Part shown: in pieces, positions 3,958-28,741 of the stretch | Position numbering within the stretch: position 1 is the stretch's first letter | Layout: the number at the start of each line of letters is the position of its first letter | Assembly: GCA_964360965.1 (NCBI GenBank) | Contig: CAYHYM010000002.1 | Location: 30,001 to 62,000, forward strand | Length of the DNA stretch: 32,000 nucleotides | Reading direction: 5' to 3' | DNA from: an uncultured Gammaproteobacteria bacterium | GTDB lineage: Bacteria; Patescibacteriota; Microgenomatia; Daviesbacterales; UBA10151 | Made by a program: the position numbers and the translations under genes | Notes under the pieces: model-generated | What the model was told of the DNA's origin: nothing | Databases searched by the model: none | Seen by the model: the letters and a program-made list of their open reading frames with translations, nothing else

Positions 3958-4146
3958 ATGCTTACTAAGAAAGATAAAGAAGATATTAAGGATATTGTGG
4001 TTGATGTCTTAGAAGATGTGGTTATGCCATCATTTGATCTTGTGGCAACAAAAACAGATTTGAAAAAAGTTGAAACCAGATTGGAAACTGTTGAAACCAG
4101 CGAAGAACGCATTAAAAATCTAGAATCACAAAGAGCGCTCACCTAA
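3958..4146 (+). CDS. small coiled-coil hypothetical protein
   Basis: 62 aa, charged and heptad-like (KTDLKKVETRLETVETSEERIKNLE). Upstream is TTGACT-17 nt-ATAAAC, then 7 nt to the ATG, so it is possibly leaderless. Confidence 0.35.
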   Translation: MLTKKDKEDIKDIVVDVLEDVVMPSFDLVATKTDLKKVETRLETVETSEERIKNLESQRALT

Positions 4147-4197
4147 GGGAAAATATACCAGAAAACTACCATAACTATTCAGTATTTCCCGGAAACT

Positions 4198-4268
4198 GTC
4201 ATCCCTGCGAAGGCAGGGATCCAATTAACTATTTCTGCTAATTAGATTCCCGCATATGCGGGAGTGAC
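4198..4268. repeat. 71-bp MITE/REP-like element made of two GC-rich hairpins with inverted GTCAYYCC termini
   Basis: Left arm GTCATCCCTGCGAAGGCAGGGATC has stem ATCCCTGC/GCAGGGAT. Right arm GATTCCCGCATATGCGGGAGTGAC contains the perfect 16-nt palindrome TCCCGCATATGCGGGA. The reverse complement of the right arm resembles the left arm. Confidence 0.6.
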
Positions 4269-7997: not shown

Positions 7998-8294
7998 TTA
8001 TCTAGGTATAAAATGTAGCTCTACTTTCATTCCTATAGCATTGGCTAATCTTTTAATTAAAGATAGAGATGGGCTGGCATTAGCATTCTCTAACCTAGAA
8101 ATAACAGCCTGTCCTGTTCCCATTCTTCTAGCTAACTCCTCTTGACTAATTTTTTTCTTAACTCTGGCATCAATCATAGCTTGGATGATAGTAAATTCTG
8201 GCTGCAAATCTTCATAAGCCTTTTTAGCTCCTTTAGTAGATAAGAGTAGTTTTTTGAGTTCCTCAACCGTATAATATTTAGGTGTTTTTTTCAT
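7998..8294 (-). CDS. higA: HigA-like antitoxin (XRE-family HTH)
   Basis: 98 aa with HTH ISQEELARRMGTGQAVISRLENANASPSLSLIKRLANAIG. Has a 4-nt overlap with the upstream toxin gene. Confidence 0.8.
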   Translation of the reverse strand: MKKTPKYYTVEELKKLLLSTKGAKKAYEDLQPEFTIIQAMIDARVKKKISQEELARRMGTGQAVISRLENANASPSLSLIKRLANAIGMKVELHFIPR

Positions 8295-8593
8295 AATTGA
8301 TACTCCTTAAGACGCTTCCTAGCTGTTTCTATTTCCTTTTTAGGGATCTTCTGACTCTTCTTTTTAAAACCATTTACTACAACCATTGTTGTACCTACTT
8401 TACCTATGAGCAATCTAATATCACCTGGCCTTAACTCCCATAAATTATTTTCTATCTTTTTTAAATATTGTCCTGGTAAATTAAATCCATTTTTCTCAAA
8501 CAACTCAATATACCCTTGGGCCCGACCTTGATCTGCTTCAACACAAGAATCTAGAAACTTTTTGACTCGTCCATCAGTGATTACTGTCAACAT
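8291..8593 (-). CDS. higB: HigB/Gp49-like (RelE superfamily) toxin
   Basis: 100 aa. The LWELRPGDIRLLIG...VVVNGFKKKSQKIP pattern is typical of phage Gp49-like/HigB toxins. Toxin-first gene order, as in higBA. Confidence 0.75.
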   Translation of the reverse strand: MLTVITDGRVKKFLDSCVEADQGRAQGYIELFEKNGFNLPGQYLKKIENNLWELRPGDIRLLIGKVGTTMVVVNGFKKKSQKIPKKEIETARKRLKEYQL

Positions 8594-8594
8594 A

Positions 8595-8623
8595 ATTTTA
8601 TGATAAATTTGTCATAATGTCAA
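8595..8623 (-). promoter_or_regulatory. higBA promoter with overlapping operator palindrome
   Basis: On the minus strand, TTGACA (8623-8618)-17 nt-TAAAAT (8600-8595) lies 1 nt from the ATG. The near-perfect palindrome TATGATAAATTTGTCATA (8599-8616) occupies the spacer. Confidence 0.5.
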
Positions 8624-8649
8624 TCCTTCGACTATGCTCAGGACAAGTT

Positions 8650-8901
8650 TTATCTTAATCCTCTGGTCACTATATCTACTAACTCAGCGATACCCTCAAT
8701 TACATAATCAGGCTTAGCTAGAGCTATATCTTCTCCTCCAAAACCATAAGTTACTCCTACCGTTTTTACTCCAGCTGCTCTTTCTAAAACTGCAAAGCCA
8801 TTGGCAGAAAGTGCATATTCATATGCCTGAAAAATAAACTCTCTAGTATCGAGCAAAGTTCCATCAACATCCAGTAGAACTGCTACTTCTCCTTCTATCA
8901 T
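8650..8901 (-). pseudogene. internally deleted HAD-superfamily phosphatase remnant
   Basis: HAD motif I (LLDVDGTLLDT) is joined after about 25 aa directly to the C-terminal AGVKTVGVTYGFGG...PDYVI segment. The cap domain and motifs II/III are absent: about 83 aa against about 210 aa typical. The longer ORF start at 8931 lies inside a GC-rich repeat. Confidence 0.55.
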
Positions 8902-8931
8902 CTTAACCCTCCTGTTACCCCTTCGACCCAT

Positions 8932-9030: not shown

Positions 9031-10086
9031 TTAACGCAAACCTCCCGTGACTTTAACTTTAGACAGTAAATCCAGATTATTTAACACTTCCCCACAGCCC
9101 CTAACCACAGTAGTTAGCGGATCATCTACCACGACAACCGACAGCTTAACCTCCTGAGTAATTTTTTTATCCAAACCAGCAAGTAATGCCCCTCCACCGG
9201 CCAAATATATACCATGGTCTAAAATATCAGACATTAGTTCCGGAGGTGTTTCTTCCAAAATCTCCTGAATCCCGGAAACTATTTGATTGACTGTGGGAGC
9301 AATAGCTTCCCTGACCTCATCAGAGGTAATTTTTAAACTTTTTGGCAGTCCTGTTGATAAATCTCTTCCTCTTACCACAGCCTCTTTATTCCCCATGTCA
9401 TAGGCTGAACCTATGTCAATTTTTATCTCTTCAGCTGACCTTTGTCCTATCAAAAGAGAGTAGCGCGTTCTTAAATAATTGATGATATCCTCATCCATCT
9501 CATCACCACCAATCCTCAAAGATTTATTTATCACCATTCCTCCCAAAGATATCACCGCAATCTCTGTGGTTCCCCCCCCAATATCTGTAATCATCACCCC
9601 TTGCGGCTCCTCTATACTCAGTTTGGAGCCAATGGCAGCTGCCATTGGCTCCTCTATTAAAAAAGCCTGCCTGGCTCCAGCTGACAAACAAGCATCCTGT
9701 ACTGCCCTTCTTTCCACCTCTGTCACCCCGGATGGAATGCCCACCACTACCCTTGGTTTGGGAATTTTTGGCAGCCCCCATTTGGTGGTGGGGGGGTTTT
9801 TATGAACCTTTTGGATAAAATAGCGCAGCATGGCCTCAGTGGTATCAAAATCGGAAATAACCCCGTCCCGCAAAGGTCTGACTGCTTCAATGGCAGCAGG
9901 GGTTCTGCCCAGCATTCTTTTGGCCTCAGAGCCAACAGCCAAAATTTGTCTGGTTTTTCTATGCAGCGCCACCACACTTGGCTCCCGGATGAGGATTCCT
10001 TTGCCTTTAACATAAACTAAGGTATTAACAGTGCCTAAATCAATACCTATATCATGGGAGAAAATTTGCCAGATGCGATCTAACAT
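9031..10086 (-). CDS. mreB: rod shape-determining actin-like protein MreB
   Basis: 351 aa with DIGIDLGTVNTLVY, the DIGGGTTE phosphate motifs and LAGGGALL. Confidence 0.95.
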   Translation of the reverse strand: MLDRIWQIFSHDIGIDLGTVNTLVYVKGKGILIREPSVVALHRKTRQILAVGSEAKRMLGRTPAAIEAVRPLRDGVISDFDTTEAMLRYFIQKVHKNPPTTKWGLPKIPKPRVVVGIPSGVTEVERRAVQDACLSAGARQAFLIEEPMAAAIGSKLSIEEPQGVMITDIGGGTTEIAVISLGGMVINKSLRIGGDEMDEDIINYLRTRYSLLIGQRSAEEIKIDIGSAYDMGNKEAVVRGRDLSTGLPKSLKITSDEVREAIAPTVNQIVSGIQEILEETPPELMSDILDHGIYLAGGGALLAGLDKKITQEVKLSVVVVDDPLTTVVRGCGEVLNNLDLLSKVKVTGGLR

Positions 10087-12508: not shown

Positions 12509-12823
12509 ATGGCTGAAGAAAAATTTGATCAATCATCCCGACCTGTTCCTCTTGCAGAGAGTGATCTTTCTCCTATTAAACCTTTAACTGCTTCTAACGT
12601 GCTAAAAATTGCCCAAAGATACATCGAAGCTTCATTCGCCAATAGAAGATTTAACAAAATAATTGCTCAAGCCACAGGAGATATAGATGAAGAAGTCATT
12701 ATGGAATTTCATTATGAGGCAGGACAAGCTGATGCATTCAGGAAAGTCTTAAAAATGGTGGGCCAGGACAATTTAGTATCCAAAGTCAATAAAGGTCTGG
12801 ATCAAGTGATTGAACAGCCTTAA
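12509..12823 (+). CDS. hypothetical protein (104 aa)
   Basis: ORF starts 2 nt after the previous stop. No recognisable motifs. Confidence 0.4.
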   Translation: MAEEKFDQSSRPVPLAESDLSPIKPLTASNVLKIAQRYIEASFANRRFNKIIAQATGDIDEEVIMEFHYEAGQADAFRKVLKMVGQDNLVSKVNKGLDQVIEQP

Positions 12824-13326
12824 AGGGAGAGAATTTGGGAATAATCGTGCGGGACAAAACTTAACTTTCTTGGTAAAATTTTATGGTCCTTCCATCTTCG
12901 ACGGTTTTTGGGGTCAACTTGTATCTGGATCGAATGGTTAAAACCTGCCGGCTCAATATTGGGCAAACCGCTGATATTTAATTCCGCTTGTTCACCTTCA
13001 TCAGGATAAAGAAGATATCCGAACCTTCCAACCTGTAAATGTTCTATCAGATGAACGATTTTTAACTGATCAGCATCTACCTCACCCAACCTAATCCTGA
13101 TGGCAATTTCCCAGGCAGTAATTCTCCCATCCTCTGGTAAATACTCCAAGAAATGTTGTTTGGCCCCAAAACCCAAAAAATGCTGACTCCATAAAATGGC
13201 ACCGTCATCAGTTGCAAAAGTACCATTAGGCTTTAAGCTTTCAGGCTTAATTCCTGACTTTAAACGCCTGATAATGGGAGGCAAATCCCAAGTAGCACTT
13301 AGTTTTGTATGCACTAATTTATCCAA
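12820..13326 (-). CDS. hypothetical protein
   Basis: The ORF is open to 13425, but that would overlap def by 80 nt. In-frame TTG (13326) or GTG (13314) avoid the overlap, so the start is uncertain. No family recognised. Confidence 0.4.
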   Translation of the reverse strand: MDKLVHTKLSATWDLPPIIRRLKSGIKPESLKPNGTFATDDGAILWSQHFLGFGAKQHFLEYLPEDGRITAWEIAIRIRLGEVDADQLKIVHLIEHLQVGRFGYLLYPDEGEQAELNISGLPNIEPAGFNHSIQIQVDPKNRRRWKDHKILPRKLSFVPHDYSQILSL

Positions 13327-13344
13327 TTTGTTACAATCCCCATA

Positions 13345-13920
13345 ATGGAAGTTGTCAAAGCGCCTGATCCCAGGCTTAAAATTCAGACAAAACCTGTCAA
13401 AAAAATAAATCCAGCTCTTTTGCAAATTTTAAAAGAGATGATTAAACTGACCAAAACCTTTAAGGAACCGGAAGGTGTGGGTTTGGCCTCCACCCAAATA
13501 GGTTTGGATGAGGCTTTTTTTGTAGCTCGCCTCGATGAGTCGGCGAAGCCACGCCAAAGGCGGGCGAAGCGGGCCAAAAATGGCAATCCGCCAGCTGGCG
13601 GATTTATTTCTGTTATAAATCCTAAAGTTTTATCTTATGGTAAACGCACTAAAAAATATTTTGAAGGATGCCTGTCTTCTCCCAATATTTGGGGTGAAGT
13701 TAAAAGATATACCTTAATGAAGGTTTCTTACCAGGATTCACATGGAAAATCCATCACCCAGACTTTCAAAGGAATCACTGCCTGGATTTTCCAGCATGAA
13801 ATGGATCACTTAAATGGAATTTTATTCCAGGATCGGGTTTTGCAACAAAAAGGCAAGTTTTTTAAATTTACAGGCCGTGATAAAACAGGTCAGGATATAT
13901 TTGAAGAGGTAACAATATGA
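13345..13920 (+). CDS. def: peptide deformylase
   Basis: Motif 1 GVGLASTQIG, motif 2 EGCLS and motif 3 HEMDHLNG. Carries an extra GC-rich insert of about 20-25 aa (DESAKPRQRRAKRAKNGNPPAGG) between motif 1 and the INPK strand. Confidence 0.9.
   Translation: MEVVKAPDPRLKIQTKPVKKINPALLQILKEMIKLTKTFKEPEGVGLASTQIGLDEAFFVARLDESAKPRQRRAKRAKNGNPPAGGFISVINPKVLSYGKRTKKYFEGCLSSPNIWGEVKRYTLMKVSYQDSHGKSITQTFKGITAWIFQHEMDHLNGILFQDRVLQQKGKFFKFTGRDKTGQDIFEEVTI
13526..13604. repeat. GC-rich in-frame insert in def ending in a perfect 18-nt palindrome
   Basis: The tract CTCGCCTCGATGAGTCGGCGAAGCCACGCCAAAGGCGGGCGAAGCGGGCC...ATCCGCCAGCTGGCGGAT sits in an otherwise AT-rich gene. The palindrome is at 13586-13603. 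A near-identical copy lies at 26742-26758. Confidence 0.6.
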
Positions 13921-14786
13921 AAAAAATTGTTTATTTCGGTACTCCTGAGTTTAGCGCCTATATCCTGGAAAAACTGCTTCAGTTTTGCCAGACAAAAAAA
14001 TTCATTGTTCAGACAGTGGTCACTAGAGCAGATAAACCTGTGGGCAGAGAACAGACTGTGATGCAATCTCCAGTTGCCATGGTGGCCCAAAAATATGGCA
14101 TTCTTGCTTTAAAACCACTTAAGCTTGATGAGCAGTTCCTCATTACCAACTACCCACTACTAACTGCTGACCTCTTCATAGTGGCTTCTTATGGCAAAAT
14201 TATCCCTCAAAGTTTACTTGATATACCCAGGTTAGGCTCAATTAATGTTCATCCATCTCTTCTACCTAAATATAGGGGGCCAGCACCAATCCTTACCCCC
14301 ATCTTAAATGGTGATAAAGAAACTGGAGTAACAATCATGTTAATGGACGCGGAAATGGATCATGGGCCACTTCTTGCTACAAGCAAGATTAGTATATCAG
14401 ATCAGGATAATCATCAGACTCTGACTACAAAACTTGCTCAGGGGTCTGCCCCACTTTTAATTGAAACTTTGGTTAAATTTGTTGGGGGAAGGATAAAACC
14501 CAAGAAACAAAAACACTCTCAGGCCACTTTTACCAAGTTTACCAAAAAAGAAGATAGTTATTTTGATATTAGCAGTCCCCCTGATCCAGAGGTTTTAGAA
14601 AGAATGATCAGGGCATATTATCCCTGGCCAGTTGTTTGGACCCGCTTTCGCCCTTCGGGCTCCAGCGGGCAAGCCCGCATCGTTAAATTCCTACCCAACA
14701 ATATGCTGCAAATGGAAGGCAAAAAGCCAATATCTTTCAAAGACTTCCTAAACGGCTACCCAGATTTTCCCTTTAAAAGTATTTAA
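13917..14786 (+). CDS. fmt: methionyl-tRNA formyltransferase
   Basis: 289 aa with NVHPSLLPKYRGPAPI and an N-terminal formyltransferase fold. Has the ATGA overlap with def, the classical def-fmt pair. Confidence 0.9.
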   Translation: MKKIVYFGTPEFSAYILEKLLQFCQTKKFIVQTVVTRADKPVGREQTVMQSPVAMVAQKYGILALKPLKLDEQFLITNYPLLTADLFIVASYGKIIPQSLLDIPRLGSINVHPSLLPKYRGPAPILTPILNGDKETGVTIMLMDAEMDHGPLLATSKISISDQDNHQTLTTKLAQGSAPLLIETLVKFVGGRIKPKKQKHSQATFTKFTKKEDSYFDISSPPDPEVLERMIRAYYPWPVVWTRFRPSGSSGQARIVKFLPNNMLQMEGKKPISFKDFLNGYPDFPFKSI

Positions 14787-14942: not shown

Positions 14943-16772
14943 TTAGACTTTAAGATCACCATAACGAGCGTAAATATGACCTCTATGTCCAATTGCTTCC
15001 ACCAGACAGTTGTTACCACCCAAAGGATTGTAAACTATTCTAAAATCACCTACTCTATCAACTAATCTTTTACCACCGGACCACTCAATCATTTTAGGTC
15101 GAACTTGACCTAAGGCAAACATCCTGATATGCTCACTCATTTTATCAACATCTTTTGGCCTGGGATGTCCCCCCATTAGTTCAGTCAGTGAGAATCTGGA
15201 AGAATTTATAACATGATATTTAGGTTCTGGCAACTCTGTTGTATTAACTGGTTTAGGCCCAGCCAAATATTGAGCTATAGGAGTGAACACTTTACTCACC
15301 TTATGATGCTCCCTCTTTGGAAATGGTAACCTAATAGGCTCTTGCCAAACAGCTTCTTGATCTACTTGAGCAGGTTGAACTTCTGCTTGTTCCACTCTGC
15401 GATAATCAGACAATCTGATTGGTTCCCGATTGGGATGCATTTTTCTGGCTTCTTCTAATATGGGAGGCAAGATATCGGAAAATACTGCTTTGATAAAATG
15501 TTCGTGATCTACTACAAGTTTGGCTGGCATTCCATAAAATTTACCATTCTGACCAATTTCTAAAGTAAGATGAGTTTCATCATCAGCAAAATGCAAAATA
15601 AGGACAAGAGTTTGTTTGTTTTGGCAAGTCAAAGTTATATTAGTTACAACATGACCTTCCGGCATTTTAAAATTTAGTTGTCTGTGAGGTGAACGCATCA
15701 CATCAGAATATAAATCCTTAAAATAGAAATCTATCAATCTATCAATTAAATTATCCGAATTATTATAAAGACCTTCAAGTTCTGTATCTGTCAGCTTATT
15801 TTTACCATAAAATTGAGCAAATTGATCTAGAGCCCGACCATCCGTTTTTTCATCATAATGTTGGTATTTTTCTAAATTAGCAGGTAAAGTTTTTTCTCTA
15901 TATGCCTCTTTGGCCCCCATCTCCATTGTTTCTAATATCCCGCTGTTTCTCCAGAAGAATGGGGAAAAGGAAGTTTCTACCCTGGTTTGAAAAAGCTTGA
16001 TGGCAGATGAAGGTGTAATGCCAAGCCTTCCTGGCATGTATATGCCCAAAGCCAGTGGCAATCCTGGCTCGGTGTAGGCTAAAGTTTTACGAAAGGAGAA
16101 CTCATCCTTAAGACCCATATCAAAGTTAACCATTAAATCTTTATAGTAGTCAAAGTAAGCGACCAGCCTATTATGCAAAGGATGTAAGGAGGGGAAAACT
16201 AAATTTTTCTGCTCGGGCCTGGCAAATTCTTGTGTTGCCAAATAGATCATGGCCTGGAGCATAACCGGAGATCTTCCAGCATGAAACATCCGATTTATTC
16301 TTCTGATACCTTCTGTGGGAAGGGGCAGGGACATTTGCTCTATATCAAAAAAAGAAGTTCCTTCAGAAGTTATTAAACCCAAAAAATTACTGCCACCTAA
16401 TTCTTGAGAATAAAAATCCTGCTCTTTGAATCTTTTGATTGCTGATTGGGGAAGAGTAACTAAACCTTTGTTTTCTGTTTGAGCCCGCTCCAAAAATATG
16501 GACAGTCCTCTTCTAACTTCCAGCCAGCGGCTTATAAAAGGTTTACCCCTATAAATAACTTTAGTGGGTTGGTGATCTTGTTCGTCAACAATCTGATTCC
16601 ATTCATCTATAGTTTCACCTAATAAATTATAATGTCTATTGTATTGCCCAGCTAAAGCCTGTGCTGAAGATGAATTTGATGACCTATTTTTGCGTCTGTC
16701 GGCACGGTTACCTAGCCCAACTTGAGGCTGGGTTTCTTGTTGGCCAGGTTGTATTTCCCTTCTGTCAAACAT
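14943..16772 (-). CDS. large protein of unknown function with C-terminal RelE/ParE-like toxin domain
   Basis: 609 aa from the ATG at 16772, which is 4 nt after the rpmB stop. The ORF-track start at 16787 is a TTG inside rpmB. The C-terminal ~74 aa (14943-15167) read HPRPKDVDKMSEHIRMFALGQVRPKMIEWSGGKRLVDRVGDFRIVYNPLGGNNCLVEAIGHRGHIY. This matches the RelE/ParE signature (RVGDYRIIY ... IGHRxxIY). The N-terminal ~535 aa match nothing I recognise. Confidence 0.7.
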   Translation of the reverse strand: MFDRREIQPGQQETQPQVGLGNRADRRKNRSSNSSSAQALAGQYNRHYNLLGETIDEWNQIVDEQDHQPTKVIYRGKPFISRWLEVRRGLSIFLERAQTENKGLVTLPQSAIKRFKEQDFYSQELGGSNFLGLITSEGTSFFDIEQMSLPLPTEGIRRINRMFHAGRSPVMLQAMIYLATQEFARPEQKNLVFPSLHPLHNRLVAYFDYYKDLMVNFDMGLKDEFSFRKTLAYTEPGLPLALGIYMPGRLGITPSSAIKLFQTRVETSFSPFFWRNSGILETMEMGAKEAYREKTLPANLEKYQHYDEKTDGRALDQFAQFYGKNKLTDTELEGLYNNSDNLIDRLIDFYFKDLYSDVMRSPHRQLNFKMPEGHVVTNITLTCQNKQTLVLILHFADDETHLTLEIGQNGKFYGMPAKLVVDHEHFIKAVFSDILPPILEEARKMHPNREPIRLSDYRRVEQAEVQPAQVDQEAVWQEPIRLPFPKREHHKVSKVFTPIAQYLAGPKPVNTTELPEPKYHVINSSRFSLTELMGGHPRPKDVDKMSEHIRMFALGQVRPKMIEWSGGKRLVDRVGDFRIVYNPLGGNNCLVEAIGHRGHIYARYGDLKV

Positions 16773-16776
16773 TTTA

Positions 16777-17010
16777 TTAGGCAACAACCGAAGCTTCAGT
16801 TACTTCGGGTCTCTTATATGGGGCTTTCACAATCCTTAAACACTTAGTACAATATTTTTTACCTTTATATACATGCAAATTAGGTTTTTGGACTCTTTTG
16901 TGAATAGGCGCTCTTAGAGCCCACACACCTCCTGCTCCTGAGGATCCTTTTTTATGCCTGGAGAAAGAGATCATGTTCTTACCTTTACCACAACGGTAAC
17001 AGATTAACAT
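16777..17010 (-). CDS. rpmB: 50S ribosomal protein L28
   Basis: 77 aa with C-x-x-CGKG near the N-terminus. SRHKKGSSGAGGVWALRAPIHKRVQKPNLH resembles the Thermus-type L28 segment [28 protein letters not shown]. Followed by CTKCLR. Confidence 0.75.
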   Translation of the reverse strand: MLICYRCGKGKNMISFSRHKKGSSGAGGVWALRAPIHKRVQKPNLHVYKGKKYCTKCLRIVKAPYKRPEVTEASVVA

Positions 17011-19957: not shown

Positions 19958-20246
19958 TCTTTTTGATAATTTGCTTTTAGATAAGCAAGAAAAACTACTG
20001 GAAGAATCCTTGGAAAGAGGCGAATTTGAGGACAGTCCTAATTTTGAAAATACTAAGAGAATGTTGCAGGAAGCGGCAACCCGGTATTCGGAGTTGCATA
20101 CTTCCAAACCAGTTACACTTAGGATCAACCAACTTGATTTAATTAAAATTAAAGCCAAAGCCAAACGAAAACAAATCCCCTATCAAACGCTGATCGGGGC
20201 TTTACTTCATGAGTATGCTGTAGGAGAAAAAGATTTAAGTCTATAA
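19938..20246 (+). CDS. brnA: BrnA-like antitoxin (C-terminal ribbon-helix-helix)
   Basis: KPVTLRINQLDLIKIKAKAKRKQIPYQTLIGALLHEYAVGE is the typical BrnA/CopG C-terminus. The ATG at 19938 overlaps the brnT end. Confidence 0.75.
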   Translation: MKKRKSNLFDNLLLDKQEKLLEESLERGEFEDSPNFENTKRMLQEAATRYSELHTSKPVTLRINQLDLIKIKAKAKRKQIPYQTLIGALLHEYAVGEKDLSL

Positions 20247-20300
20247 TACCTTCCAACATAGTCCTTCGATAAACTCACCATAAATTCACCAAGACCTGCC
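20240..20300. repeat. left copy of an imperfect direct repeat flanking the 20427-20963 gene
   Basis: The exact 23-mer TCTATAATACCTTCCAACATAGT (20240-20262) is repeated at 21129-21151. It is followed by CCTTCGATAAACTCACC...CAAGACCTGCC, which resembles units in the right copy. Confidence 0.7.
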
Positions 20301-20426: not shown

Positions 20427-20963
20427 TTACTCTGCTTTTTTTGCAATTTCCCTAGGTTGATCCAAGAAATCATCTCTTAACCATAATCCTCCTACCCGTA
20501 AAATGGTCTCGATATTTAAGGCATTTTTATAGACATATTCCTTGACTGGATTCATCATTGCATCTTCTTTTAGAGAAAGTAAAACATTCCTAGCTGTTTC
20601 TTGAACATCATATTCTGTATAATCTTTTGGTAAAGAATTTTTAAGATTCTTCAATAAAAATTCTTTACTCTCATCAAGAATTTTCTCTAAGCCACTTTCT
20701 CTAATTAACATTGCACCATATTCTGTAGGCTGTAACGGGCTACCTGGTGCCTCTGTTAGTAAATGATCTAACTGAATTCCAGCACTTCTGAAATAAGTTT
20801 GAATTTCGATAATAGCATTGCCCATCCTCTTAATGGATCTACCTAGAGGATCGAGCTTACGATTCAAAATAATCACTATGAAAAAAGCTAGAATAAGAAA
20901 TGGTGTAATATTACTTGGGGTAATCCCCACATATTTTAGAAATTCAAAAATTTCACTTAACAT
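20427..20963 (-). CDS. hypothetical membrane-anchored protein
   Basis: 178 aa with one N-terminal TM (ITPFLILAFFIVIILN) and a soluble C-terminal domain of unknown family. It has its own strong SD (GGGAGGGAG 8 nt before the ATG) and a TATAAT box upstream, unlike most neighbours. Confidence 0.5.
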   Translation of the reverse strand: MLSEIFEFLKYVGITPSNITPFLILAFFIVIILNRKLDPLGRSIKRMGNAIIEIQTYFRSAGIQLDHLLTEAPGSPLQPTEYGAMLIRESGLEKILDESKEFLLKNLKNSLPKDYTEYDVQETARNVLLSLKEDAMMNPVKEYVYKNALNIETILRVGGLWLRDDFLDQPREIAKKAE

Positions 20964-21128: not shown

Positions 21129-21213
21129 TCTATAATACCTTCCAACATAGTGCTTCGGCTTCGCTCAGTATAAATTTACCCTTCGGTAAACTCAGGACAA
21201 GCCAGGGCCTGCA
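21129..21213. repeat. right copy of the direct repeat (expanded with CTTCG/GCTCAG units)
   Basis: TCTATAATACCTTCCAACATAGT followed by GCTTCGGCTTCGCTCAGTATAAATTTACCCTTCGGTAAACTCAGGACAAGCCAGGGCCTGC. It shares CTCAGGACAAG with 8637-8647 and GGCTTCGCTCAG with 9006-9017. Confidence 0.7.
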
Positions 21214-25216: not shown

Positions 25217-27439
25217 ATGAACAAGTTCTTGCTCCGCCCCCTATCCCTTGTCCTTCTTTTGTCCCAATTTATCTTGATTAAAATAGGTGAGTTGCCTTTT
25301 TGGCTAATTAGCAGGACGCTTGCGTTAGCAAGCAAGAGAGTGAGGTTGCCGGCCGAAGCGTTCCGCTGGCATCGTGGTCGTGGCCGTCCACCCAAATTAT
25401 GGAATAAAATTCCCCAAAAAATTAAGATCATTACCTCTATAGCGGTTTTGGCATTAATTTTTTTTCTCTATACCAATTTTGTTTTTATGGCTGCTTATCA
25501 GTTGCCAAACCCTGATCGTCTTACCTCCCCCACCCAACCCTTAACAACTGAAATTTATGACAGAAAGGGACAGCTTTTATACAGGCTTTATGAGGACAGA
25601 AACAGAAGCCTGATTAAATTTGAAGATTTGCCAAAATATCTGATACATGCCACTATTGCCATAGAAGATAAAAATTTTTATCAGCATCTAGGCGTAGATT
25701 CATCAGCCATCATCCGGGCTATTTATCACAACATCACCCAAAAAAACCTGCAAGGCGCCTCCACCATTACCCAGCAACTGATCAAAAACACTCTATTAAC
25801 AACCGAACAAACATACCAGCGAAAAATAAAGGAAATTTTTTTGGCATTTTGGGCAGAGAGAATTTATTCTAAAGACCAGATTCTTAAGATGTATTTTAAT
25901 GAAGCGCCATTCGGGGGAACCGCCTGGGGAGTAGAGGCTGCCTCGCAAACTTATTTTGGGAAAACCACCCGCGATCTAAATTTGGCTGAATCAGCCTATC
26001 TGGCAGGGCTGCCGGCCTCACCCACCCAATTTTCACCTTTTACCGCATCTTTCCAGGTGGCCAAAACCCGCCAAAAAGAGGTCTTGAGCAAAATGGTGGA
26101 GGCAGGATTTATTGACAAACTACAAGCTCATGAAGCTACAGATAAACCTTTAAACTTACTGCCCCAAAAAAACAGTATTCTGGCCCCGCACTTTGTGATG
26201 TATGTTAAAGATTTGCTCTCTCAAAAATTCGGTCCCAGAGTGGTTTCCCAGGGTGGGTTAAAAATTACCACCACCCTGGATTTAAACCTTCAGCAAAATT
26301 TGGAAAAAATTGTCAAAGAAGAAGTGGAAAAATTAACAGAACTTAATGTGCAAAATGGAGCAATTCTTGTAACTGACCCAAAATCCGGACAGATTCTGGC
26401 TATGGTGGGAAGTAAAGATTACTATCAGGAAAGCTTTGGTAATTTCAATGTGACAACAGCCCTGCGCCAACCAGGCTCATCCATCAAACCAGCAACCTAT
26501 GCAGCGGCTTTTGAGGCAGGATACTCCCCGGGCAACACCATTTTAGATGCTCCGGTTAACTTTATTCAACCAGGCAGCAAACCTTACTCTCCCCTAAATT
26601 ATGATGGTATATTTCATGGGCCTGTATCAATACGGGTAGCCTTAGGTTCATCTTATAATGTGCCTGCTGTAAAGATGCTCTCCACAGTGGGAATTCCCCG
26701 TATGATTGCAACTGCCAAAAGTTTGGGGATCACCACTTTTGATCCGCCAACTGGCGGACCACAAAGGTTTGGTCTATCACTGACTCTGGGTGGTGGAGAG
26801 GTTAAAATGATTGACATGATGGCGCTTTATGGCACATTTTCCCAGATGGGCCGATTTAATCGGCCCACACCAATTCTTAAGGTGACAGACTCAAATGGAA
26901 ATGTCCTGGAAGAATACTCCAACCAGAGTATCCAAGCGCTCCAGCCTGAAATTGCCTATCTTGTAACTCACATCTTATCTGATAACAAAGCCAGAACCCC
27001 TGCTTTTGGGGCAAATTCACAGCTTTTTATCGCAGACCATCAGGTGGCTGTAAAAACCGGCACCTCTGATAATAAAAGGGATAACTGGACCTTTGGCTAT
27101 ACCCCTTCCTTTGTGGTGGGGGTGTGGGTGGGCAATAATGACAACTCCCCCATGAACCCTACTTTAACCTCAGGTGTAACCGGTGCCGCTCCTATTTGGA
27201 ATAGGATTATGAAGCAGCTTTTGGCAAATCATCCCTTTTTAGGATTTGTCCGTCCGGCAGGGATTGTTGAGGCGCAAATTGACGGAAGACAAGATCTGAC
27301 CCTTTCCAGAAATATTCCCAAATCTTTAGTCAGGATTAGAAAAGATGGTGATAACTTTCACTATTCTGATGCCTTCTCAACGTTTGCCACCTCCTCTGCC
27401 GAGTCAAACTCGGCTAGGACGTTTGACAGTACAAATTAG
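25217..27439 (+). CDS. class A penicillin-binding protein (PBP1A-type glycosyltransferase/transpeptidase)
   Basis: 740 aa. GT51 motifs AIEDKNFYQHLGVD, GASTITQQL and RKIKE. Transpeptidase motifs SxxK (GSSIKP), SxN (SYN) and KTG (KTGTSD). The N-terminal cytoplasmic tail contains a GC-rich tract (25311-25395). Confidence 0.9.
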   Translation: MNKFLLRPLSLVLLLSQFILIKIGELPFWLISRTLALASKRVRLPAEAFRWHRGRGRPPKLWNKIPQKIKIITSIAVLALIFFLYTNFVFMAAYQLPNPDRLTSPTQPLTTEIYDRKGQLLYRLYEDRNRSLIKFEDLPKYLIHATIAIEDKNFYQHLGVDSSAIIRAIYHNITQKNLQGASTITQQLIKNTLLTTEQTYQRKIKEIFLAFWAERIYSKDQILKMYFNEAPFGGTAWGVEAASQTYFGKTTRDLNLAESAYLAGLPASPTQFSPFTASFQVAKTRQKEVLSKMVEAGFIDKLQAHEATDKPLNLLPQKNSILAPHFVMYVKDLLSQKFGPRVVSQGGLKITTTLDLNLQQNLEKIVKEEVEKLTELNVQNGAILVTDPKSGQILAMVGSKDYYQESFGNFNVTTALRQPGSSIKPATYAAAFEAGYSPGNTILDAPVNFIQPGSKPYSPLNYDGIFHGPVSIRVALGSSYNVPAVKMLSTVGIPRMIATAKSLGITTFDPPTGGPQRFGLSLTLGGGEVKMIDMMALYGTFSQMGRFNRPTPILKVTDSNGNVLEEYSNQSIQALQPEIAYLVTHILSDNKARTPAFGANSQLFIADHQVAVKTGTSDNKRDNWTFGYTPSFVVGVWVGNNDNSPMNPTLTSGVTGAAPIWNRIMKQLLANHPFLGFVRPAGIVEAQIDGRQDLTLSRNIPKSLVRIRKDGDNFHYSDAFSTFATSSAESNSARTFDSTN
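26742..26758. repeat. 17-nt palindrome inside PBP1A, a near-copy of the def palindrome
   Basis: ATCCGCCAACTGGCGGA, read in frame as DPPTGG. The def copy ATCCGCCAGCTGGCGGAT is read in the same relative frame as NPPAGG. Confidence 0.6.
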
Positions 27440-28699: not shown

Positions 28700-28741
28700 C
28701 ACCACTATAGTGGTGAGCGAGCGAAGCGAGTCGAACCATGG
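28700..28741 (+). repeat. perfect 16-nt palindrome plus GC-rich repeat unit carrying the rplK start codon
   Basis: CACCACTATAGTGGTG (28700-28715) lies directly after the nusG stop. It is followed by AGCGAGCGAAGCGAGTCGAACCATGG. The 20-mer CGAAGCGAGTCGAACCATGG (28722-28741) recurs with one mismatch at 29199-29218. Confidence 0.6.

Follow-up and report, generated by a model that had tools for sequence, protein, structure and literature searches.

A very short GC-rich palindrome read in frame in the peptide deformylase and PBP1A genes of a Daviesbacteria-like genome, compared with described intragenic repeats

The Rickettsia palindromic elements (RPEs), the best known of which are about 100–150 nucleotides (nt) long, lie in frame in genes of AT-rich reduced genomes, are present in some orthologues and absent in others, and add residues that are tolerated. 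The same can be said of a palindrome read in frame in two genes of the DNA analyzed here, namely def, encoding peptide deformylase (PDF), and the gene for PBP1A, a class A penicillin-binding protein; the DNA, called the window below, is the whole stretch of 32,000 nt from contig CAYHYM010000002.1 (positions 30,001 to 62,000). By description, this palindrome is set apart from RPEs in that it measures 16–20 nt (5–6 codons) with no conserved flank beyond its core, is found across phyla and not in one genus, often replaces native bases, and has neither a CGTC tag nor a CCA tail. A likeness to RPEs had been proposed in an earlier, sequence-only reading of the window; the kind of idea stands, but unit size, tags, plain insertion and restriction to one lineage do not carry over.

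Repetitive extragenic palindromic (REP) sequences with GTAG or CGTC tags are 20–40 bp long and occur, with intragenic copies, in several phyla; those of the CGTC type have stems of 8–9 bp starting with A-T pairs, loops of 4–5 nt and no dedicated transposase, and RPE-4 and RPE-6 of Rickettsia conorii are classed with them (Di Nocera et al., 2013; PMC3733652). REPs typically number from tens to thousands in a genome, are mainly extragenic and often form dimers, and those of the GTAG type are associated with a RAYT/IS200-type tyrosine transposase. The palindrome is REP-like in its GC-rich stem opening with A-T/T-A pairs and its 4-nt loop (AT-CCGCC / AGCT / GGCGG-AT), in its excess in non-coding DNA with occasional intragenic copies, and in the presence of CGTC-like units in the same def and fmt loops of relatives. 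It is unlike REPs in having no unpaired GTAG or CGTC tag (CCA was found in 6 of 214 outward flanks, for 107 low-GC copies among the matches listed in the genome scan described below), in its stem of 6–8 bp instead of 8–9 bp, in its low apparent copy number, and in the same exact sequence being found in distant phyla; no head-to-head dimers were noted among the copies seen, which come from partial genomes. A miniature inverted-repeat transposable element (MITE) has 50–500 nt, with terminal inverted repeats enclosing an internal segment, and duplicates its target site; here the whole unit consists of the inverted repeat with a 4-nt center, duplications were not seen at filled sites and longer forms are rare. 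The GC-cluster and hairpin units of mitochondria, which are about 30–60 nt long, belong to organelle genomes and are likened to the palindrome by description only. They are represented by the GC clusters of yeast mitochondrial DNA (PMC4478555) and the hairpin elements of sponge mitochondria (PMC2800124), small GC-rich palindromic units of very AT-rich genomes; they share with the palindrome the lack of an encoded protein, the co-occurrence of several families and the location of some copies in genes. The palindrome is best filed as an extremely small variant of intragenic REP/RPE-type repeats, unusual in its tiny size, in the lack of tags and target duplications and in its identity across phyla. 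A literature search by sequence string and by topic (palindromic repeats of the candidate phyla radiation, CPR, or Patescibacteria), whose coverage was incomplete, found no description of it, so that a prior description is possible.

The palindrome in def and PBP1A

The window has a GC content of 39%, and the closest named homologues of its def and PBP1A come from Candidatus Daviesbacteria and Microgenomates of the CPR. The two host genes and the two copies are the following.

13345..13920, plus strand: def (peptide deformylase), host of the first copy; open reading frame (ORF) of 191 amino acids (aa), Pfam PF01327, 145.9 bits, E = 1e-42
13585..13604, no strand assigned: def palindrome AATCCGCCAGCTGGCGGATT, perfect over 20 nt, with core TCCGCC-AGCT-GGCGGA; codons 13588-13602 encode PPAGG
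25217..27439, plus strand: PBP1A (class A penicillin-binding protein), host of the second copy; Pfam Transgly and Transpeptidase domains
26742..26758, no strand assigned: PBP1A copy ATCCGCCAACTGGCGGA, with arms as in def and center AACT; codons 26744-26758 encode PPTGG

The sequence-only reading had described an 18-nt palindrome in def (13586-13603), a near-identical copy in PBP1A (26742-26758) and a common relative frame giving PP(A/T)GG, and had judged the pair unlikely to arise by chance. The def palindrome is present and is longer than described, the PBP1A copy is confirmed as ATCCGCCAACTGGCGGA, and both are indeed read as CCG CCA NCT GGC GGA, yielding PPAGG and PPTGG. The judgment on chance also holds, as 0.01 matches to ATCCGCCANCTGGCGGA with at most two mismatches are expected from 100 dinucleotide-preserving shuffles versus four strand-matches at two sites in the window. 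Folding of the copies as single-stranded DNA gives hairpins with -8.1 kcal/mol for def (z = -3.7) and -6.5 kcal/mol for PBP1A (z = -4.4). Situated inside the gene and flanked by AAAAA and TTTATTT, the def copy has a terminator-like score on both strands; the PBP1A copy and most other copies have no T tract. An Rfam 15 scan at gathering scores, which covered the window and 20 loci whose copies are intergenic, returned tRNAs and one Flavo-1 RNA only, none of which overlaps a palindrome.

Orthologues of both proteins were compared. Among the 1247 def homologues found, the nearest named ones are from Candidatus Daviesbacteria. The loop from FFV to FISVINP has 26 residues in the window and six (AKNGxK) in minimal orthologues of 171 aa, and most def orthologues read AK(N/D)GxK-F with no palindrome. 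Of 120 def orthologues, 11 contain the palindrome, which takes up three different positions within this one loop and is read in two frames: nine have PPAGG directly before F-ISVINP, P0053 has it elsewhere in the loop (ARLHDSK-NPPAGG-PPSS..), and P0025 carries the palindrome DNA in another frame (..KQ-SASWR-TPSN..). In a neighbor-joining tree calculated with the loop left out, which is rough for so short a protein, the carriers are scattered, each beside sequences without the palindrome. The best 120 PBP1A homologues belong to Daviesbacteria or Microgenomates wherever named. In 110 of 112 PBP1A orthologues of the Daviesbacteria type the palindrome is absent and the loop reads TTF(N/T/D)-(D/E/N)PxR-(Y/F)GLSL, relative to which the window protein, FD-PPTGG-PQR-FG, is 4 aa longer; the native site is AAT GAT CCA CAA AGA in L213 and AAT GAT CCT AAC CGT in L212. 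The only other exception, P0148 (locus L127), reads FDD-PPAGG-YG and holds an independent copy, the exact 18-mer ATCCGCCAGCTGGCGGAT (GATCCGCCAGCTGGCGGAT in L127), in a different register, and the two registers in PBP1A indicate two separate events in one loop. Homologous non-palindromic residues, which would mark the segment as ancestral, were looked for in both proteins, and none stands at PPTGG in the 110 PBP1A orthologues or in the common AK(N/D)GxK-F form of def. The palindrome is not ancestral protein sequence, and judged from these alignments it appears to have entered one permissive loop in def and one in PBP1A repeatedly and independently.

Copies are also alike at the DNA level. In four def alleles (window, L001, L004 and L134) with 71–79% protein identity, all five palindrome codons are identical, compared with 24 of 96 other conserved degenerate codons, and the copies keep the G/C-ending codons CCG and GGC despite a genome of 39% GC. 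Identical def alleles occur in independent assemblies from NCBI, ENA, JGI and Logan, and a def locus identical to that of the window is present in a Hainich groundwater assembly (L128). In L155, the def copy has decayed to CCG CCT ACT GGC GAG. In L151 def (269-288), which reads AATTCGCCAGCTGGCGAATT, mirrored C>T and G>A changes have converted PPAGG to SPAGE and kept a perfect 20-nt palindrome. An empty allele was sought in the 90% identity cluster P0070 and not found, PPAGG being kept in all six members. As a control, the window has a 28-nt perfect palindrome in mreB, GGAGCCAATGGCAGCTGCCATTGGCTCC (9625-9652), which encodes the conserved EEPMAAAIGS; L001 and L004 encode this motif by other codons. 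Since it is not kept in orthologues, the mreB palindrome is placed outside the family; such a palindrome would be very improbable in random sequence, and it may have arisen when a quasi-palindrome was 'perfected'.

The loop of def can be placed on known structures. In the Thermotoga PDF structure 1lme there are gaps opposite both extra def stretches, and in the AlphaFold model of def residues 65-84, between strands 56-62 and 87-98, have confidence values (pLDDT) below 50. Because of these gaps and of the low-confidence segment between strands, the def inserts are placed in a hairpin loop, the sequence-only reading having proposed to map them with respect to surface loops. Mycobacterial PDF has an Arg-rich insert in the same loop. 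Such inserts resemble the one described here in bringing basic residues into the hairpin loop after the GxGxAAxQ motif and strand, and in showing that length changes are tolerated there; they differ in being lineage-wide protein features that share no DNA palindrome with unrelated genes.

The extra segment of def is more than the palindrome, which accounts for only the last 5–6 of its 23 codons. Two further modules are recognized upstream.

13528..13575, plus strand: ARLDESAKR module of 27 nt (CGC CTC GAT GAG TCG GCG AAG CGG GCY), compared with the minimal FFV-AKNGxK-F; split in the window by the 21-nt insert
13549..13569, plus strand: secondary insert of 21 nt, CCA CGC CAA AGG CGG GCG AAG (PRQRRAK), a CGCC-AAA-GGCG mini hairpin that repeats the preceding GCGAAG

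Local GC content in the segment reaches 0.59, versus a window mean of 0.39. The 21-nt insert is missing from the nearest relative, L179/P0005 (ARLDESAKRAKNGQKF), whose module sequence otherwise matches, and a few bases away def of L180/P0002 holds a 21-nt insert of another sequence, whose arms are CGCC(C)AG/CTGGCG. Only P0001-P0006 contain the ARLDESAKR module, and these six are scattered among minimal-loop sequences in the rough neighbor-joining tree. The module is GC-rich, but with a fold no better than that of shuffles (z = -0.4) it is an uncertain candidate for a hairpin element and is not claimed as one. That the whole 23-aa segment is one hairpin element was ruled out, as ARLDES..KRAK varies independently of the palindrome and folds like shuffles. 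The segment is a mosaic of several small events. The earlier description of a GC-rich stretch of about 20–25 aa was right in calling it extra and GC-rich, and is to be corrected in that it is not a single insert but consists of at least three separately varying modules. The long ARLHDSKK..RW.NY loop found in def of most Daviesbacteria was considered as a recent insert and rejected, since it is confined to one clade, is AT-richer and looks vertically inherited. In another relative (L161), def has a GC-rich insert of 49 aa that includes a CGTC-REP-like stretch.

Copies in other genomes and the form of filled sites

Further copies are not limited to the 11 def orthologues and the second PBP1A. 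A scan of species-representative genomes for ATCCGCCARCTGGCGGA found at least 120 loci. By calculation, base composition would favor GC-rich genomes about 14-fold, yet most of the matches listed are in genomes below 50% GC, and the carriers among them include many Patescibacteria lineages, Bacteroidota, Elusimicrobia and Cloacimonadota. The reading frame depends on the setting. Among the matches listed for genomes below 45% GC, ORFs of at least 200 aa have 24 PPxGG, 2 RQLA and 1 SAxWR, versus 17, 20 and 13, respectively, in ORFs shorter than 100 aa; above 55% GC the RQLA frame dominates and represents ordinary coding. The ORFs bearing PPxGG are assigned by Pfam to CysRS, MetK, succinate dehydrogenase flavoprotein, RecJ, glutamate dehydrogenase, TsaD, PNPase and LeuRS, to RpoD and DnaK (two copies each), and to MetAP, SMC/RecN, PBP2, HisB and others. 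About half of the low-GC copies among the matches listed lie outside long ORFs, in ORFs of less than 100 aa. As AT-rich carrier genomes are mostly coding, this proportion implies depletion from genes and an excess of intergenic copies, given how little of such a genome is non-coding. The palindrome enters genomes as DNA.

Close to known copies, about 14 further ones were found in about 680 kb of low-GC DNA, versus about 3e-5 expected by base composition, which corresponds to a density near known copies of about one per 50 kb in the partial genomes seen. No flanking tag or longer consensus was detected in the flanks of the 107 low-GC copies among the matches listed, and the excess of T adjoining the core is the base imposed by the search pattern. 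Loop variants include AACT, AGTT, AGTC and GGCT. Low-GC DNA surrounding the copies, about 840 kb in all, has four arm pairs with loops of 5–40 nt versus more than 120 with a 4-nt loop, and no long element bounded by the arms was found there. A scan of viral contigs showed no sign of a phage vehicle, nearly all of its 29 matches being in GC-rich contigs in the IRQLA frame, which is ordinary coding.

Filled sites can be compared with empty ones in a few alignments of sequences at least 20% diverged in protein. In def and PBP1A, 3–7 native bases are missing where 13–18 new bases stand; for def, L179 reads CAA AAG where the window has AAT CCG CCA GCT GGC GGA, that is, CAAAAG corresponds to an 18-nt stretch. 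Three sites natively have part of an arm, namely A(T/C)T CCG CCA for the long loop of def and GAT CC for PBP1A. Copies within other repeated DNA take the same form. A Mucilaginibacter flavidus isolate (L048:2255-7175) has five copies of a MITE-like repeat of about 170 nt with terminal repeats CGTCATTGCGAGGAACGA-AGCAACCTCT-ACG.., and in two of the five the 10-nt AGCAACCTCT is replaced by the 18-nt TCCGCCAGCTGGCGGACT, in both terminal repeats of one copy and in the left one only of the other. L050 has an intact tRNA-Lys (4120-4196) and, about 110 nt upstream of it, an incomplete second copy of its 5′ half (3985-4045), in which the palindrome ATCCGCCAGCTGGCGGA stands in place of AGCAACTGC. No target duplication was seen at the filled sites compared (def, PBP1A and the Mucilaginibacter repeat).

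Explanations for the origin of the palindrome

The palindrome is probably a very short, GC-rich, REP-like mini-hairpin repeat that is patch-copied into DNA, with in-frame copies surviving in tolerant loops. The family would be defined by the core TCCGCC-NNNN-GGCGGA, usually with the center AGCT and often extended by A/T, and its home would be AT-rich genomes of the CPR and of several other phyla. A hairpin copy in single-stranded form, derived either from a copy elsewhere in the cell or from DNA taken up by it, may anneal at a replication fork or gap through GC-rich microhomology of a few bases and be copied in as a short patch, so that 3–10 native bases would be replaced. Because the sequence is self-reverse-complementary and stop-free in all frames, either orientation gives the same peptide. 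Selection would retain only the in-frame copies in surface loops, and no benefit to the host would be required. In short-patch double illegitimate recombination, described in Acinetobacter, heterologous single-stranded DNA anchored by microhomology takes the place of a short stretch. The filled sites are alike in the replacement of few native bases, the variable net change in length, the lack of target duplication and the GC-rich microhomology at the edges; the known process differs in its arbitrary donors, with no known link to a recurrent palindromic donor or to the CPR. Templated replacement of short patches with GC-rich microhomology would seem to fit the filled sites better than insertion by a transposase, and a scan of 25 window ORFs gave no match to any transposase family. 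The sequence-only reading is supported because homologous residues were not found in place of the palindrome across the lineage and because further copies do exist in other genomes.

Several points weigh against this account. Neither a donor or master copy nor a mobilizing enzyme has been identified, and the copies seen in Daviesbacteria DNA (about 244 kb, partly redundant) are those of def and PBP1A only, a low apparent copy number. The scan pattern fixed the arms, and the sample was partial and biased. As filled and empty pairs are few and diverged, the junctions, and with them 'replacement' and 'microhomology', are read ambiguously; as the neighbor-joining tree is rough, some of the scattered presence in def could be due to loss or recombination. 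The identity of the 16-mer across phyla falls outside what the model explains, and perfect conservation across species could instead reflect selection on the nucleotide sequence. The last point leads to a rival view, in which the hairpin would be a functional nucleic-acid signal under selection, either an RNA stem-loop serving as a pause site or terminator, an RNase site or an mRNA stabilizer, or a protein-binding palindrome, seated in tolerant coding loops owing to the scarcity of non-coding DNA. It would account for the perfect conservation of the palindrome nucleotides in def alleles whose synonymous sites have otherwise diverged, for the mirrored compensatory changes that keep pairing in L151, for the stable hairpins, and for the terminator-like def copy. 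Such a signal is nevertheless unlikely, since host genes and positions are unrelated and non-orthologous between genomes, most orthologues do without it, a T tract is missing at the PBP1A copy and most others, one copy (L155) has decayed, no Rfam family matches, and copies also lie within other repeats and a pseudo-tRNA.

The palindromes could also have been made locally, by template switching (snap-back synthesis) at a half-site such as TCCGCCA, with nothing moving at all. The long def loop natively has A(T/C)T CCG CCA where P0053 and P0025 have the full palindrome, PBP1A natively has GAT CC, the mreB palindrome is absent from orthologues, and native CCCGCT of fmt pairs with AGCGGG of an insert described below. 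A half-site survey was too noisy for use. Local synthesis is quite unlikely, as the same arms and AGCT center appear where the empty form has no half-site (def AKNGxK-F, the Mucilaginibacter repeat and the pseudo-tRNA); as unrelated genes of many phyla share both arms and center, it cannot yield the recurrence across phyla. Tn10 leaves palindromic remnants after nearly precise excision, and the palindrome could by analogy be the footprint of a larger transposon or MITE with terminal inverted repeats beginning TCCGCCAG, whose abutted ends remained. Longer centers do exist, namely CCGCC-14 nt-GGCGG in L144, CGCC(C)AG-8 nt-CTGGCG in L180 and TCCGCCA-13 nt-GGCGGA in L027; the rarity of loops of 5–40 nt and the failure to find a long bounded element in the 840 kb around copies, the lack of target-site duplications, and native bases that are missing and not restored make an excision footprint very unlikely. 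Finally, PPAGG might be an ordinary lineage-specific loop or protein motif whose palindromic coding is coincidental, or an assembly artefact. The PDF loop is generally hypervariable, and the 17-mer is ordinary coding for IRQLA(D/E) in GC-rich genomes. Codons that are identical in every copy, including the G/C-ending CCG and GGC, the same DNA in a second frame (SASWR) and the chance expectation of 0.01 speak against an ordinary loop, and the identical alleles in four independent sets of assemblies against an artefact; both are extremely improbable.

The account of a patch-copied REP-like repeat can be extended further, to a transposase-free minimal selfish sequence shared among phyla, a 16-nt self-complementary oligonucleotide spreading within and between AT-rich bacteria via microhomology annealing and patch copying; this extension is doubtful. 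If it were true, half-sites would be turned into full palindromes and surface loops of essential proteins remodeled, for which DNA uptake by the CPR might help, and together with sister families (CCTGCCGGCAGG, the ..SGQA.. units and CGTC-type hairpins) the palindrome would be a main source of small insertions in CPR proteins.

Other repeats of the same loops and their meaning

Two elements of other families lie in the window.

14649..14678, plus strand: fmt insert CGC CCT TCG GGC TCC AGC GGG CAA GCC CGC (RPSGSSGQAR), of a different family, in the fmt ORF 13917..14786 adjacent to def; 7 aa more than in most orthologues
8621..8647, no strand assigned: TCCTTCGACT..GCTCAGGACAAG element (TCCTTCGACTATGCTCAGGACAAG) in the intergenic stretch that separates ORF 8291..8593 from ORF 8650..8931; pattern match at 8636

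The DNA of the fmt insert is identical through GGG CAA GC in the distant Daviesbacteria L136 and L181 and decayed in L156, and its AGCGGG pairs with native CCCGCT upstream. The same fmt site holds SFGSAQD in L182, SFDSTQD in L174, and a CGTC-type REP-like unit, SPSRHPEGAQRPKDL, in L145 and L162; the intergenic element at 8621-8647 is kin to the in-frame fmt inserts SFDSTQDK (L174) and SFGSAQDK (L182). In all, two sites of fmt have received in-frame units of the CGTC REP-like type, ..CCCGTCATCCTGAGG..GAAGGATC.. (L145, L162 and L158/L159). A second palindrome family, (A)CCTGCCTGCCGGCAGGCAGG(T), encodes LPAGR(Q/H) in def (L131, L143) and LPAGRQV in fmt (L001, L131); its copies are at L001:11066-11087, at L131:750 and 1595, and at L143:2691. 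The loops of def, fmt and PBP1A have thus been struck repeatedly by several GC-rich hairpin families.

Some further observations concern the surroundings of these repeats. In a Saccharibacteria locus (L020) the (A)CCTGCCTGCCGGCAGGCAGG(T) palindrome adjoins the TCCGCC palindrome, and in a Neomarinimicrobiota locus (L033) the degenerate, non-palindromic GCCTGCCGGCCG does so. In the window, there are also 16-nt perfect palindromes, TCCCGCATATGCGGGA at 4248-4263 and CACCACTATAGTGGTG at 28700-28715, the latter between nusG and the L11 gene, where it could be a terminator. A 29-nt direct repeat, TCTATAATACCTTCCAACATAGT(C/G)CTTCG, is present at 20240-20268 and 21129-21157, 889 nt apart and with 97% identity; its copies lie outside ORFs of at least 80 aa, on either side of ORF 20427..20963. 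The ORFs flanking def-fmt on the minus strand, 12820-13425 (201 aa) and 14943-16787 (614 aa), have no Pfam match, and the former overlaps the start of def on the opposite strand by 81 nt.

If confirmed, the palindrome would be among the smallest repeated DNA units that enter essential genes in frame, and would test the minimum of sequence needed for spread. It offers an origin at the DNA level for part of the small lineage-specific insertions in CPR proteins, and peptides such as PPAGG, SASWR, LPAGRQ and ..SGQA.. in AT-rich metagenome proteins would be marks of repeat DNA, not conserved motifs. That phyla so distant have an identical 16-mer may reflect horizontal spread or a host process common to them.

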